DNA of 64,000 bases from Octopus vulgaris (GCA_951406725.2 OX597838.1:38564001-38628000); one strand, 5' to 3'; positions 2,211-56,918 are shown, counted from the first letter of the stretch. A program made the numbers and translations. The notes: a model not told the origin generated them from the letters alone.

Positions 2211-3015
2211 TTAATAAATAACAGGGTAAAAAATTCTAGAAGAAATTCTCCGCTATCCAGCGAGAGAGAAAAGATAGTATATATAATATACATTCAACAA
2301 TATAAGGAATGGCCCTGATAGGCCATTCGACTCCCTAGAAAGAGCAGCCAAACTCAAACCGCAAATTAGTTGTAATTCTGAAATTGAAAGAGAAATAAAA
2401 GACGTTTACCCCTTTCATCTCTGGACTATGCATAGTTTCGGCAAACTTTGTTAAACAAATTAATTAAATTAAATTAAATTTATTTACCAAAACTGTGCTC
2501 GTCAAGCAGAGAAGCCTAAGACGAGAATATATCCACGAGGCGATGGTAAGGAAGCTTCCAGTCTATATGCTATAAATTTTCAAAATCTACCGCATCGCGC
2601 GTGTTTTCTCAGCAGCAAATATAAACTGCTGATTTAATTTCAAAATTGTTCAAAAAATTCATTAATTAAATATATAGGGTTGCAAAAAATCTAGAAAAAT
2701 TCTCTGCTACCAGCGGTCTAGAAAAAAAAAGATAGTTAATTTAATTTCACTCTATCTCGCTAGACCGCTGGTAGCGGAGAATTTTTTCTAGATTTTTTGC
2801 TACCCTTATATTTATTAATTAATGATTTTTGGCTAATTTTGAAATTAAATTAGCACTTTATATTTGCTGCTGAGAAGAACCGCGATTGCGGTAGATTTTG
2901 AAAATTTAGAGCATATAGACTTGAGACTTCCTTACCATCGCCTCGTGGATATATACTCGTCCTAGGCTTCTCTGCTGACGAGGCACGCCAGTTGTAAATA
3001 AATTTAATTTAATTT
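2211..3015 (-). mobile_element. Non-coding hammerhead-bearing PLE-like element: partial tandem plus ~260-bp inverted arm
   Basis: Starts at a (TA)n junction. 2211-2280 resembles 2662-2737 (direct repeat). Arms ~2463-2721 and ~2760-3014 are inverted copies. Contains the HHR at 2418-2512. Confidence 0.8.
2418..2512 (-). ncRNA. Type I hammerhead ribozyme
   Basis: rc reads tctctg-CTTGACGAG-(long AU stem II)-cGAAACtatgcataGTC-cagaga. Stem I is tctctg/cagaga and stem III is the palindrome ACTATGCATAGT. The core has one extra T here; the inverted arm has intact CTGACGAG at 2975-2982. Confidence 0.75.
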
Positions 3016-3237
3016 CTGCCAGCTTCCCGTCTTAAAAACATATCAGACCTTAAGCAGCTGCGAAACAGATGCATCTCACAAAACTATTGAATCCGTCCTT
3101 CATGTTTTTCATGATACGGACTTACATTAGAAGGCGATATATATCCTTACTATTTTTAGCAATTTGCACAACCACGTAGAGATTTTATTGCTGCCTCTAC
3201 AGTTAATGCAGATTCTGTTGATGTTATTCTTCTTGTA

Positions 3238-3480
3238 TCGTTTATTAGTTTCTGTCATGTGACTGTGGTCATGCTGGGGCAATGCCTTGAGGGGTATCAT
3301 TGAATAGATCGACCCAGGACTTAATTCATTTTTTAAGTATGGTAAATATTCTATCGGTAGATTATACTGAACCGGTAAGTCAATGGGACATAAACACGGC
3401 AACACGAGTTGCCGAGCAGTGATACTAGACAAACACAGACACAAGGACACACACACACACACACACACACACACACACAC
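3238..3480 (-). mobile_element. tRNA-derived SINE family A, 3' half (5' half resumes at 8891-9056)
   Basis: Diverged match to 9600-9800 (gtcatgtgactgtggtcatgctgggg..gacccaggac..ttctatcggt..gggacataaacac..gacaaacacagacac). Confidence 0.75.
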
Positions 3481-3731
3481 ACACATATATATATATGTGT
3501 GTGTGGATGCATGCATACTATGATGGGGATAAACACGGACAAAAAGATGCACACACACAGGCATATATATATACATACATATATATATATATATATATAT
3601 ATATATATATATATATATATATATATATATATATATATATATATATATATATATATATATATATATATATATATATATATATATATATATATATATATAT
3701 ATATATATATATATATTTATTATATAGAAGG

Positions 3732-52490: not shown

Positions 52491-52511
52491 CTATTCTTCT
52501 TATTATTATTT

Positions 52512-53110
52512 GATGAAAACTCTCAGTTTATTTTGCTGAGTATGATGGAAAGTGTCAGCTGTCCGCAGCCAGCAGACTAAGGTGACACTTGTTTACTGGT
52601 CATGCTTCAAGAACCCTGCGAAGAATTCTTGCAGTTCCAAGCAATGTTAATTTTTGTACATTTACATTTGTATTAATCTTTCTGAGCCGTGTTGGCAATA
52701 GAGTGCTGATACTTTAAAATGCACCAATTACTCTTGGTGTGACGTCTACTTTCCTCATTGACCACAACCTTCGCATTTCCCACTTCAAATCGTCGTATTT
52801 GTTCAGTTTTTCTTCTTCTTTCTCTTTTAGCCTGTTGTTACCGGGATATGCTGTATCAGTTATCATGCAAGTTCTTTTTTTTTCTATCTACCACAACAAT
52901 GTTCGGTTTCCGATGTCTGGTCAGAGGATAGCACTGAATCATTGCATCCCACAGAATTTTACAATTTTCACTTTCGTCGACTCCTCCTCAGGTTTTCTCA
53001 TACCACGCCTTTGCTCTTTTTGGGATCTGATTTCCAGAGTTTCCGATGGAACATTCTGGCTACATTGTCATGTCTTCTTTTGTAGTCCTGTTGAGCAAGG
53101 CTCCGTGCAG
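52512..53110 (-). pseudogene. R4/Dong-type RLE domain + 3'UTR ending at (AAT)n
   Basis: rc reads ESENCKILWDAMIQCYPLTRHRKPNIVVVD..CMITDTAYPG..KEEEKLNKYDDLKWEMRRLW..VIGAF..VQKLTLLGTARILRRVLEA*. Confidence 0.88.
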
Positions 53111-56049
53111 GGTCAATATTTTTTTGTCTGCATATCCACGTTCATCAGTTTTTTCTTATTCATCAGTTTTTTCTATTAGCTAGTTAGAACAAGTAACTAA
53201 GGCTTTGGAGAAGAGGTGTGATACTATTCGATGGACTGAACTTTAGTTTACACATTTTATAAATGCGACAACGGTTCATCTCCTTTCAAGGGATCGGAGG
53301 AGGGATGCGTGTCTTCATTGATTTCAGATACTTCCAGCAGATCTAAACAGACTGTTATCCTGCAGTCCTACAAATCGCATATCAACAACCAGAAGACACA
53401 CTTAGCACACTATTTCCGCGTGAATCACTGCGATCGTTCGCTTGACAATTTGTGCAACAATCATTGGTCGGAGATGCTGGTTTCACACGGCTGGGTTTTT
53501 TGGTTTGTTTGTTTTCTCTCTAAAATTGTTCTCTCTGTTACTTCAAACCTCTTCATCAACATGCGCACGTTGACCTTGACACTGGCGTTATCTTAGCAAA
53601 CAACCCGTATATAACTCTGACGTTGAATAAACTGCACCATTCCTCCCACAAGAAATCTATGACTGGGATGAGCTTCTGTATGGAACCCGTGACTTTCCTG
53701 TATAAACAACGAAAAGTGTTATAATGGAAGAAGAACCAGTTGACTTATAATGTGCAGCTTGAAAGATCTATGTCAGTTAATAAAAAACTTATGCCTACTT
53801 TTAAATTACTCTCGGGACGAGTCTAGTATGTATGTACATATGTACGCATGTATGTATATACGTATGCATTTGCAAGTATGTATATACATATATATATATA
53901 TACACATATGGATACACATTTACATAACTCCCGAAACAACCCTATGCTTCTATAAGTATGTATATATGTTTGTATGTATGCATATATGTACGTTTCAATG
54001 TACATACATATACATACGTATATATATATATATATATATATATATACATATATATACATACATATATATATATATATATATATATATACATACATATATA
54101 TATACATATATATATATGTGTGTGTGTGTATGTGCGTGTAATATATACATATAGTTTATATGTACATATGTCTGCATATACAAAATATATGTATACATAT
54201 ATGTATATGTATATATATATATGCATATATATATAGATATATATATATATACACACAGACACATGAGTGTGTGTATGTTTGTGTATATATATATATACAC
54301 ACATATGAGTGTGTGTATGTTTGTGAGTGAGAATATTTTTGTGTGTTTATGTGTGTGTGTCTTTATGTAGCTCTGTGTGTTTGACACTGGAATTTTTCTT
54401 TGAATTTCCTTGGAACACTTTCGAAATATCGGTTTAAAGACTAAGAAAAGAGAAACGATATACAATACAGTTTGTGATATATAAAATTATATAAATGTGT
54501 CTGCGCACGCGCGCGCGCGCGTGTGTGTCGTTATACATGCCCATATATGTAATATATTTATCCACAAACATTTCAACACATATACAGGCGCGCGTACACA
54601 CACACACTCACACACTCAGTCTCACACACATGTACATACGCAACAGGCGTAGACATTTTTTTTCTCTTCTTAAAACGCTTGACTTAGCAATCAAAGGCTC
54701 TGGTGGTGTTAATGACAGCCTAACAAAGTGTCACCGCCATAGATATGTATGTTTGTGTGTGTGCATGTGTGTGTGTGGGGGTCTGTGTGTGTGTGTGCGC
54801 GTGCATATGCGTAAGTACGTCTGTGTGAGTTTGTGTGTGTGCGTGTATATATATGCATGTGTCTAATAGCATGTATATATACACAAGTAGTATACGTGTA
54901 TGTTCTTTGCATATGTACTTATATATATATATATATATGTATATATATACATATATATATATGTATATAGATATAGATGTATATATATATATATATACAC
55001 ATATATATATATATGTATGTATGTGTATATATATATATATATATATATATATATATATATATATATATATATATATAGTATATATATATATATATATATA
55101 TATATATATATATATATATATATTATTCCTGGATATGTATCTCTATGTATATATGTAAAGCAAGCACACAATATATATGATGTATTGCATACATCTTTGT
55201 GTGTGCGTGTATATATATATATATATATATATATAATGCATATATACATATATATATTTAAATATTTGCATACAAGAGTGTGTGTGCACCTGTGTGCGTG
55301 TGTATGTGTGTGTGTGTGTGTATCGATCTCTCCACCTGAAGAACTATTTACAGATCAATCTATAGTATAAAGTTTATTGCATTACTCTTCTTACACCTCC
55401 TCCGCCCCCTCTCTCTCTCTCTCTCTCTCTCTTCGCCAGACAGATATCTTTAGTCAGACTTCACAGAATCTATTGCATCGCTTTTCGTCTCACACAATAC
55501 ATATGGATATTATTTCCTCACGTTCTTTCGGTCAAATGCATACATACATACATATACATACATATATATATATATATATATATATATATATATATGAATG
55601 TATGTATATATATATATATGTGTGTGTTTGTGTCTTTGTATGAATGGAAATCTTTGTAATTGTGTTTGTGCCACTTTATCTGTATATCTATCAACCTGTA
55701 TAGGTATGACCGTCCAAATGGTAGGTAGAGAGATAGACAGAGAGGCAGAGGGAGAAATAGAGGGACAGACACGGACGGACAGATAGATAGATAGATACAT
55801 ACATACATACATACATACATACATACATACACACACATACATAATTACATACGTACATACATGCATACATGCATACAGACAAAAAATCAGACAGACAGAC
55901 AGACAGACAGAGAAATGGACGGACAGACACGGAATGACAGATGGACGGACAGATAGATAGATACGTACATATATACATACATAGACAGACAGAGAGACAG
56001 TTAGATAGCTAGCTAGATATATATATATATATATATATATATATATATA

Positions 56050-56918
56050 TTGGCAGGGAATTATGCAAGTAATTCTTTTGTTAAGACCGAAACCGAGGTA
56101 TGCATTTAAGTCTGTTATTTATTTAATTTTTCATATGTCCTGCCCGCCAAAGTTGGTTCTGGTGTTCGCTGAATTCTTCCTCTAGAGAATTTCCCTTGTA
56201 GTTTGATCGTTGATGATCTTCTTCTAGCATTCTGGCCGGCTACCTAGCAGGCCAGCCCTGCCAATATACACATATATTTGAATTTTCTCTGACTCCTCAG
56301 ATTTTTTGAATGCTGGACTACTGGTTTTAAATTGATATTAAAATTAATATTAATTTATCTCCCTCAATTTTTAAATATTTAAATAAATACGTTCCCTAGT
56401 TGTAAGCACTATCCGCAGTGAATTATTCACTGCAGCCCTTCGCTTCAGGAGTCTCTCAGCGCGCCAGAGCCAAGACGTTTGAAATTTTATTCCCGATGTA
56501 ATCAGTAAGACTAAGCACGTGTCTGTCTTGACACAGAGAGCTGGGGTTAGTCTTGCGGTTTGCATCTCGAGGACCGAATGTACTGAAGAAGTCACGGACA
56601 CTTGAATTATGCAAGTAATTCTTTTGTTAAGATCGAAACCGAGGTATGCATTTAAGTTTGTTATTTATTTAATTTTTCATATGTCCTGCCCGCCAAAGTT
56701 GGTTCTGGTGTTCGCTGAATTCTTCCTCTAGAGAATTTCCCTTGTAGTTTGATCGTTGATGATCTTCTTCTAGCATTCTGGCCGGCTACCTAGCAGGCCA
56801 GCCCTGCCAATATACACATATATATGAATTTTCTCTGACTCTTCAGATTTTTTGAATGCTGGACTACTGGTTTTAAATTGATATTAAAATTAATATTAAT
56901 TTATCTCCCTCAATTTTT
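56050..56918 (+). mobile_element. Retrozyme/pLTR-like element: 546-nt monomer in 1.6x tandem with hammerhead and short 5' inversion
   Basis: 56058-56372 resembles 56604-56918. The 5' tatattggcaggg is the rc of internal ccctgccaatata. (TA)n on both sides. Confidence 0.9.
56577..56652 (+). ncRNA. Type I hammerhead ribozyme
   Basis: aatgta-CTGAAGA-agtc..gatc-GAAAC-cgag-GTA-tgcatt. The 3' half is repeated at ~56085-56106. Confidence 0.8.

Follow-up and report, generated by a model that had tools for sequence, protein, structure and literature searches.

Non-LTR retrozymes have been described in metazoans by Cervera and de la Pena (2020, PMC7229834), who propose Penelope-like elements (PLEs) as their mobilizers. 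In the parts of that article considered here the re-copying of retrozymes into animal genomes is a proposal, which a later preprint backs with evidence from 35 genomes, most of them vertebrate (co-occurrence and phylogeny of pseudo-LTRs); its conclusion is that retrozymes originate from PLEs or need them (bioRxiv 2026), and the string "mollus" does not occur in its text. On the side of the candidate mobilizers, the sections of Craig et al. (2021, PMC8557442) that bear on this work report that PLEs of the Hydra clade carry hammerheads and target (TA)n; one of them, Hydra-1_Obim, comes from Octopus. Published work covers the retrozyme class with its hammerheads, the link to PLEs and the use of (TA)n as a target by Hydra PLEs.

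The locus described here is a window of 64,000 nucleotides of Octopus vulgaris DNA (GCA_951406725.2 OX597838.1:38564001-38628000) containing hammerhead-bearing islands. The best explanation, which we consider quite probable, is that these islands comprise six protein-free retrozyme families and four truncated Hydra-clade PLE ends, both likely inserted into TA repeats by a Penelope-type reverse transcriptase (RT)/endonuclease.

Hammerhead motifs in the window

A type-I hammerhead-like motif borders each of the 11 positions listed in the initial annotation. For counting, a type-I descriptor (YYGANGA, stem II, GAAA, stem III, UH, stem I) replaced an earlier version that gave three strict and five loose matches and missed motifs mismatched at the base of stem II. 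The window contains 11 matches to it against a mean of 0.28 (maximum 2) in 100 block-wise dinucleotide shuffles, and nine against 0.05 when the stem-III loop is at most 2 nt. Ten of the 11 are motifs that had been annotated before; the eleventh, 44362-, looks like a chance match, and the 2418- copy fails the descriptor through an additional T ahead of the core and a damaged stem II base. The initial annotation also counted about eight degenerate motifs, given without coordinates; the only ones seen were 21421- and some damaged copies, either mirrored or incomplete. The palindromic stem III attributed to these motifs is present in most of them (ACTATAGT, ACGATCGT, ACTATGCATAGT, ATTGATTCAAT, ACTCAGAGT, ACAGGCTGT) and lacking in 3732-, which has an 8-nt loop, while the ACATGT stem quoted as an example occurs in none of the ten.

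Because there are 11 matches where shuffles give 0.28, the hammerhead motifs are real, and the idea that they arose by chance in an A/T-rich, repeat-dense window is almost certainly wrong. Several observations would fit it: an Rfam search of the window, suggested as a check, returned no match at the gathering threshold, and no hammerhead family was among the best 150 of 693 matches ranked by E-value, an output consisting mostly of miRNA matches driven by microsatellites; isolated motifs fold weakly (z of +1.6 to -2.0 against shuffles in 10/11, and -4.8 for 2418-) and rarely form the three-way junction in minimum free energy models; and the expected proximity to TA repeats, which did hold for 10/10 matched motifs within 500 nt of (TA)8, is shared by 55% of random non-repeat positions. 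Chance is refuted both by the shuffles and by the conservation of the motifs among family copies and between unrelated families. The descriptor is passed by 27/38 copies of family A, 42/47 of B, 29/34 of C, 26/27 of F and 15/40 of G, with eleven loci repeating another locus's genomic place left out, and by 23/35 copies of D; this last count, like the allele-sharing and cleavage-junction counts given below, comes from a set of loci with ten such duplicates left out. Core deviations are UUGACGA, found in 27/27 family A copies, and CCGAUGA in family J, and the family F hammerhead shows a compensatory change in stem I.

Retrozyme families and Penelope-like element ends

The islands at 2.2, 21.7, 30.6, 32.1, 39.9 and 56.6 kb appear to belong to non-LTR retrozymes without PLE coding remnant (families D, F, C, G, A and B; Table 1). 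All six are built of monomers joined head to tail, every one carrying a type-I hammerhead, with periods read from natural arrays; upstream of the hammerhead the sequence returns, at a constant interval, to the 3' part of the same family. The longest ATG frame read round the monomer is 49-94 aa, GC content is 33-44% (below 50% throughout), and tblastn of the six monomers with three PLE proteins gave no match. The families are dispersed and multicopy, on many contigs (the best 40 of 1060-2811 first-look candidates were scored per family), and, judged by features other than PBS and PPT, have no LTR structure. Their stems II measure 31-60 nt, and the predicted circular folds are 64-71% paired (z -3.6 to -7.3, 20 shuffles each). 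The single large, diverse family first proposed is replaced by six mostly unrelated ones, of which only B and F are clearly related (62% over 378 nt) and C weakly so. Parts of the family B sequence occur as contigs in 19 rows from 7 studies, none recorded as RNA; in four of these rows the greater part of the stretch is covered by contigs, a few of which cross the cleavage site, where a dip in depth is due to a second copy of the same sequence.

Table 1. Features of the window; retrozyme and PLE assignments are putative.
Feature	Position	Strand	Details
Retrozyme family D, 467-nt monomer	2210..3015	-	main arm 2739-2210, inverted arm 2751-3015
Family D hammerhead, damaged	core ~2505, predicted cleavage after 2424	-	within main arm
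PLE family K, Hydra-type, 5'-truncated, 5.1-kb copy	3715..8847	-	88-94% match along full copy
Family K hammerhead	C3 3776, predicted cleavage after 3738	-	beyond ~3.4-kb microsatellite-rich 3' UTR
Family K ORF, broken	8794-7223	-	tblastn with Hydra-type proteins
Family K tail arm, inverted, 53 nt	8795-8847	inverted	terminates in (TA)n
Family I, 212 nt between (TA)n runs	21291..21502	-	minimal damaged hammerhead (21421)
Retrozyme family F, 507-511-nt monomer	21620..21950	+	short inverted arm 21668-21620; period in natural arrays 507-515 nt
Family F hammerhead	C3 21721, predicted cleavage after 21772	+	
PLE family H, Hydra-type, 3' end	25044..25281	+	young, autonomous; 727-aa open frame, 3355-nt unit
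Family H mirror arm	25126-25044	mirror	hammerhead C3 25109
Family H direct arm	25126-25281	+	hammerhead C3 25141
Family J, likely older Hydra-type PLE 3' end	27502..27742	+	CCGAUGA core, C3 27626, predicted cleavage after 27665
Retrozyme family C, 561-nt monomer, 1.2 units	30183..30869	+	array of >5 units in L266
Family C hammerhead	C3 30612, predicted cleavage after 30662	+	
PLE family E, Hydra-type, 3' UTR and end	30955..31613	+	ORF ~2 kb upstream in longer copies
Family E hammerhead	C3 31427, predicted cleavage after 31484	+	
Neptune-type PLE 3' end, separate, no hammerhead	31614..31897	+	adjoins family E copy
Retrozyme family G, 490-499-nt monomer	31907..32380	-	hammerhead C3 32105, predicted cleavage after 32052
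Retrozyme family A, 351-358-nt monomer	39610..40128	+	inverted arm 39824-39610, direct arm 39818-40128
Family A hammerhead, UUGACGA core	39876, predicted cleavage after 39908	+	
Retrozyme family B, 546-nt monomer, 1.6 units	56058..56933	+	hammerhead C3 56583, predicted cleavage after 56646

The islands at 3.7, 25.1, 27.6 and 31.4 kb are, judged by what lies upstream of them, ordinary 5'-truncated ends of Hydra-clade PLEs (families K, H, J and E). Head-to-tail ORF-less monomers were not found for these four, and their upstream sequence reaches PLE ORFs. A full copy of K measures 5104 nt between hammerheads, and 40 copies of H (the best 40 scored per query) are 100% identical, its partial tandems carrying the ORF after the island sequence. 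Family J is likely the 3' end of an older Hydra-type PLE, known from few loci and a remnant only: at locus L411 the shared upstream sequence extends for more than 1.1 kb and reaches the remnant of a Hydra-type endonuclease, and no monomer-type self-tandem was found among 50 loci, some of them duplicate places. A tie of J to the Hydra ORFs near L366 and L378 was rejected, since L366 is an independent insertion and the loci share the J part only. The 31.4-kb island was also considered as a retrozyme with a captured Neptune 3' end, and this was rejected; the other 39 scored family E loci have no Neptune part, and longer family E copies reach a Hydra ORF instead. Family I, missing from the list of the initial annotation, is a separate observation, and a search for its parent element found none.

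The proteins are assigned to their putative class by motifs and tblastn. From the alignment and the E2 protein, E/E2 (E2 being an intact Hydra family with 838-862-aa proteins in the genome), H and K have an RT followed by a C-terminal GIY-YIG-type endonuclease and no CCHH; H, K and E2 share RWK-like and DKT motifs, and E2 also has CxCX5C, CxxC and CxH. Exceptions are the missing second linker C of H, the KWK of E2 and the two frames in which K is read. By these motifs E/E2, H and K match the Hydra-clade characters given in section 11 of PMC8557442, J by its remnant only, and all four have the canonical pseudo-LTR hammerhead and (TA)n insertion. Pfam searches gave no match for H, K or an E fragment and nothing useful for 20 ORFs of the window, though two of these belong to the PLE ORF detected by tblastn.

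These assignments also bear on the possibility that all islands are 5'-truncated pseudo-LTR ends of autonomous PLEs, their tandems made by local duplication or template switching. Plain truncated ends are what the initial annotation had named as speaking against its own reading, and the islands of families E, H, J and K, four out of ten, are of this kind. As an account of the whole it is improbable: A, B, C, D, F and G run upstream into their own 3' part and match no PLE protein, so that it fails for these six unless a rare ORF-bearing parent was missed among the 40 best matches scored per query. The claim of ORF-less islands likewise stands for the six retrozyme families and falls for 3732-, the terminus of a 5.1-kb PLE copy with an ORF at 7223-8794; and the picture of non-autonomous, independently amplified, PLE-mobilized and (TA)n-targeted elements fits six of ten islands, five of them strongly TA-targeted, and not the other four.

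Insertion footprint and templates

The retrozyme copies carry the PLE-type integration features listed in section 6 of PMC8557442: variable 5' truncation, an inverted 5' arm, an extra tail at one end and a microsatellite target. After duplicates had been removed by junction sequence, 197 of 226 arm 3' ends map to two fixed sites per family, and (TA)4 follows within 12 nt in 143/197, against 8% and 5% at random positions of the window and of PLE loci, respectively. Without family A, in which only 15/44 ends lie at (TA)n, the figure is 128/153, the other five families being strongly TA-targeted. Opposite arms end at different sites in 56/57 loci. Clustering of 5' ends at the cleavage site was rejected, with 9/224 ends within 10 nt of it and 9.6 expected. 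The cleavage junction is crossed by 36/85 shorter arms, and two or more junctions by 28/225 arms; main-arm crossing counts are inflated, as the loci are best-scoring matches to queries spanning the cleavage site. Divergence is lower between the opposite arms of a locus than between loci: 1.0 vs 2.7% in B, 1.0 vs 2.8% in G, 3.9 vs 6.0% in C, 4.2 vs 6.5% in D, 4.7 vs 6.2% in A and, as a weak difference, 2.5 vs 3.2% in F. There are 65 locus-private alleles common to opposite arms and 378 private to one arm only.

Since 5' ends ignore the cleavage site, the template of the retrozymes is likely a circle or an uncleaved multimer. With a circle, tandem copies would be transcribed and the hammerheads would excise monomers from the transcript, assisted by dimeric pairing of the palindromic stem III, and a host ligase would circularize them. 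A PLE protein would then nick (TA)n on both strands, and each nicked 3' end would anneal at one of two U/A-rich template sites (140-195 and 219-293 nt beyond the cleavage site), priming reverse transcription that circles the template and halts at random, leaving two back-to-back arms. The same families and PLE enzyme could instead use an uncleaved linear multimer or jump from monomer to monomer, the hammerhead being a passenger or trimmer and no circle being made. This has a real though minority chance of being right: junction crossing, near-identical units and shared private alleles are also expected when a homogeneous source array yields a linear multimer, the autonomous PLEs H, K and E2 form like partial tandems, and an intact Neptune-type family spreads without hammerhead. 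It sits less well with the presence of intact hammerheads in the majority of copies of six families that are mostly unrelated, with the smaller divergence among units of one array than among copies at different loci (1.3 vs 2.7% in B, 0.8 vs 6.0% in C, 1.0 vs 2.8% in G) and with the mainly circular form of comparable retrozymes in mussel, coral and axolotl, as given in the parts of PMC7229834 considered.

Candidate helper and comparison with known systems

As to the enzyme, the strongest helper candidate for families B, C, D, F and G is E2. Its ends lie ~90 nt apart, the far one being CCCT plus A/T ahead of (TA)n; those of the five families lie 85-117 nt apart, and CCT occurs 10-26 nt upstream in 9/10 of their ends (9/12 with A; background 7-13%), in a stretch picked after the end sequences were known. 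The assignment is soft because of this post hoc choice, because families B and F share a relationship that weakly extends to C, and because CCT is also close to the ends of K and the Neptune family. Comparison of the monomers with the 3' regions of E, H, K and Neptune gave no homology beyond short A/T-rich matches. That the retrozymes are mobilized by the Neptune-type family (781 aa), which lacks a hammerhead, or by some other PLE is somewhat doubtful. Many copies of the Neptune-type family are intact; the family also terminates in (TA)n, a target that the sections of PMC8557442 considered give for Neptune and Naiad too, and its two ends are ~40 nt apart, resembling family A (46 nt); the spacing in the other five families is nearer to E/E2 than to Neptune, H (73 nt) or K (~70 nt). 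Family A likely uses a PLE other than E2. Tentatively, a Hydra-clade enzyme may recognize a short CCT-plus-A/T signal carried twice by unrelated retrozymes, use both nicked (TA)n strands as primers at two registers of an RNA circle made by the ribozyme, and roll round it. If so, the E2 protein and five passenger RNAs would be a ready system for reconstituting circle-templated retrotransposition, and the PLE "tail" and inverted arm, on which the retrozyme insertion pattern bears, would be explained. With six young families with base-level candidate priming sites, the two-arm rule and intact candidate helpers in one genome, the question of re-copying becomes directly testable.

A paper describing octopus retrozymes or two-site priming by PLEs was not found in a search covering few subscription papers, and repeats of cephalopods may appear in the supplementary material of PMC7229834 and the 2026 preprint. 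The preprint agrees on PLE origin or dependence; the octopus evidence is an insertion footprint, and pseudo-LTR homology was not found. Like the retrozymes in the parts of PMC7229834 compared, the octopus families are protein-free tandem monomers with a type-I hammerhead each, GC below 50%, a predicted self-paired circle and coexistence with PLEs. However, five of the octopus monomers measure 467-561 nt against 150-450 bp, and most of their copies are scattered 1-3-mers in (TA)n that have inverted arms and end at two fixed sites, an arrangement undescribed in the main-text parts compared; cleavage and circles are demonstrated for the published retrozymes and predicted for the octopus families. 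The octopus PLEs resemble the Hydra clade, as presented in the sections of PMC8557442 considered, in RWK-like/DKT motifs, CxCX5C linker, CxxC, CxH, canonical hammerheads, (TA)n targets, partial tandems, inverted 5' arm and a tail at one end, and differ in their units (3.4, 5.1 and 6.3 kb against <3 kb), 3' UTRs of up to 3.5 kb, tails (~70-90 nt against 30-40) and the replaced second linker cysteine of family H. Chlamys non-autonomous PLEs such as MRC1, described in the same source, are likewise PLE passengers in head-to-tail multicopy insertions, but resemble the 3' end of their helper and mostly have no hammerheads; the octopus monomers, unlike Chlamys, have hammerheads, and no more than a short end motif is common to them and their candidate helper.

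Hammerhead motifs in the window

The window, which has 35% GC and is dense in microsatellites, covers positions 38564001-38628000 of one contig in an assembly of 2.8 Gb and 227 contigs. No match was found in the window by an Rfam scan at the gathering threshold. A hammerhead descriptor tolerating a single mismatch at the stem II base returned 11 matches, against a mean of 0.28 in 100 shuffles. Ten of these are motifs listed in the initial annotation, while the eleventh, on the reverse strand at 44362, is probably a chance match. The ten islands had been read as one swarm of non-autonomous retroelements living in (TA)n; the motifs are real and six islands are retrozymes, but the other four are ordinary ends of Penelope-like elements (PLEs). 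Proximity to (TA)n holds for all ten motifs (≤500 nt), yet 55% of random positions lie as close, which makes this a weak test. The motif at 2418 on the reverse strand, listed as well formed, is damaged in the window copy, but 23 of 35 copies of its family (D) are intact and have a stem II of 60 nt.

Each island was searched against its own genome, with 40 candidates scored and 20–30 loci retained per query. The majority of hammerheads in the fetched family copies pass the descriptor. Stem I of family F shows a compensatory change in 7/26 copies, and the palindromic stem III is preserved between family E and its sister E2, an autonomous Hydra-type PLE elsewhere in the genome, through a double change. 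In energy models, the three-way junction was seldom obtained for isolated motifs.

Features of the window (periods are from natural arrays; first-look candidate numbers are not copy numbers; 3'-end sites are in nt past the predicted cleavage site, from which monomers are numbered)
Feature	Window position	Strand	Period (nt)	First-look candidates	3'-end sites	Remarks
Retrozyme A	39.9 kb		351-358	2811	173/219	
Retrozyme B	56.6 kb		546	1573	172/289	
Retrozyme C	30.6 kb		561	2025	195/293	
Retrozyme D	2.2 kb		467	1928	142/227	
Retrozyme F	21.7 kb		507-515	1466	174/268	
Retrozyme G	32.1 kb		490-499	1060	145/239	
Family I	21291-21502	-		3284		212 nt; minimal CCGACGA-core hammerhead; L270-L289
Older relatives of A	40231-40392, 62095-62170					69-86% identity (all older relatives)
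Older relative of C	6568-6805					
Older relative of E2	30058-30146					
Hydra-type PLE ORF, decayed remnant	1-964	+				a further element; extends upstream beyond window
GC-rich minisatellite	25938-26449					20-bp unit, 25.6 copies
(TA)n-bounded islands, hammerhead-less	1525-1677, 1724-2148, 20180-20399, 20656-20943, 21003-21234					

Ends and proteins of Penelope-like elements

All 40 scored copies are identical to the 25.1-kb island (family H), whose sequence leads into an open frame of 727 aa where H copies form partial tandems. The 3.7-kb hammerhead (K) terminates a copy whose match to a 5104-nt unit runs from 8794 to 3715 of the window and includes the ORF. Two longer copies of family E, found at 31.4 kb in the window, have an endonuclease frame ~2 kb upstream of the sequence seen here, and the 27.6-kb island (J) has >1.1 kb of common upstream sequence, which in one locus extends to the remnant of an endonuclease. 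The intact E2 frames are 838–862 aa long, in a 6310-nt unit. The motifs that Craig et al. (PMC8557442) give for the Hydra clade are present in these PLE proteins, and the supplement of that work records both (TA)n preference and a hammerhead for Hydra-1_Obim. In the E2 protein (L360-L377), ~110 additional residues, rich in Asn, are inserted between the thumb of the RT and the linker of the endonuclease. The Hydra-type PLEs of L361, L410 and L260 have long 3' UTRs, which measure 3.5 kb in E2 and K and contain microsatellites within the element; the microsatellite field at 4080-7000 is thus partly PLE cargo.

An intact Neptune-type family encodes a 781-aa protein with RVT_1 and GIY-YIG domains. 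It is young, with many intact frames (L136-L155, e.g., L140:1706-5074), a second frame upstream (≤479 aa) and repeats inside its 3' UTR. No hammerhead was found in this UTR, although hammerheads are described as a general feature of the group.

Other islands are also bounded by (TA)n. The best 40 of the family I candidates are equal in length and have (TA)n or another microsatellite on both sides; no parent element was found, and family I is possibly a solo pseudo-LTR. Some of the hammerhead-less islands have a CCCT and A/T terminal motif or fold-back ends and may represent shorter ends of PLEs or retrozymes from other families.

Retrozyme families and their insertion footprint

In A, B, C, D, F and G, the DNA 5' of the hammerhead re-enters the family's own 3' part, and one family C locus holds an array of >5 units. 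The six monomers contain no ATG frame >94 aa and gave no match to three PLE proteins. B and F share 62% identity across 378 nt and C weakly resembles F, the other monomers being unrelated. Predicted circular folds of all six beat those of shuffled sequences.

An arm is a stretch of a retrozyme copy in one direction, and some loci hold two back-to-back arms that point opposite ways. Of all arm 3' ends, 197/226 map to one or other of two family-specific sites, both lying within U/A-rich sequence, and (TA)n adjoins 143 of these 197 mapped ends against 5–8% at random. Family A is the exception, with only 15/44 ends adjoining (TA)n; its insertions outside microsatellites often show, by eye, target duplications of 8–12 bp (L009, L011, L013, L014, L015, L021). 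Where both arms end at mapped sites, the near and far sites are split between opposite arms in 56/57 loci. At the cleavage site, 5' ends are no commoner than by chance (9/224 vs 9.6 expected). The cleavage junction is crossed by 36/85 shorter arms, the only fairly bias-free count since main arms were selected for crossing, and at least two junctions are crossed by 28/225 arms. Opposite arms of a locus are more alike than different loci, with 65 locus-private alleles common to both arms and 378 confined to one.

Template, candidate helper and relation to known elements

Because copies start 140–290 nt past the cut and run through it, a cleaved linear monomer could not have templated them; we infer copying from a circular RNA, from a multimer left uncut or by successive template jumps. 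A circular RNA is somewhat favoured, since the ribozyme has been conserved and retrozyme circles have been demonstrated in mussel, coral and axolotl (PMC7229834). In the proposed mechanism, both strands of a nicked (TA)n would anneal to the U/A-rich sites and prime copying.

E2 is a candidate helper of B, C, D, F and G, a lead drawn from end architecture. Its ends are ~90 nt apart with CCCT ahead of the far one, and these five families have a similar spacing of 85–117 nt, compared with 46 in A, ~70 in H and K and ~40 in the Neptune-type family. CCT precedes 9 of the 12 modal ends by 10–26 nt (background 7–13%), in an interval set post hoc and among partly related families.

The six retrozymes are putative new families of a known class; a literature search for cephalopod retrozymes or two-site priming found no paper. 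Their chief interest lies in the clean insertion footprint and in a testable helper–passenger system. Retrozymes and their proposed mobilisation by PLEs have been described (PMC7229834), a PLE origin of retrozymes is supported by a recent preprint (bioRxiv 2026), and Hydra PLEs are reported with their (TA)n targeting (PMC8557442). In their inverted-arm and tail structure, the retrozyme copies resemble the PLE insertions described in the latter work.
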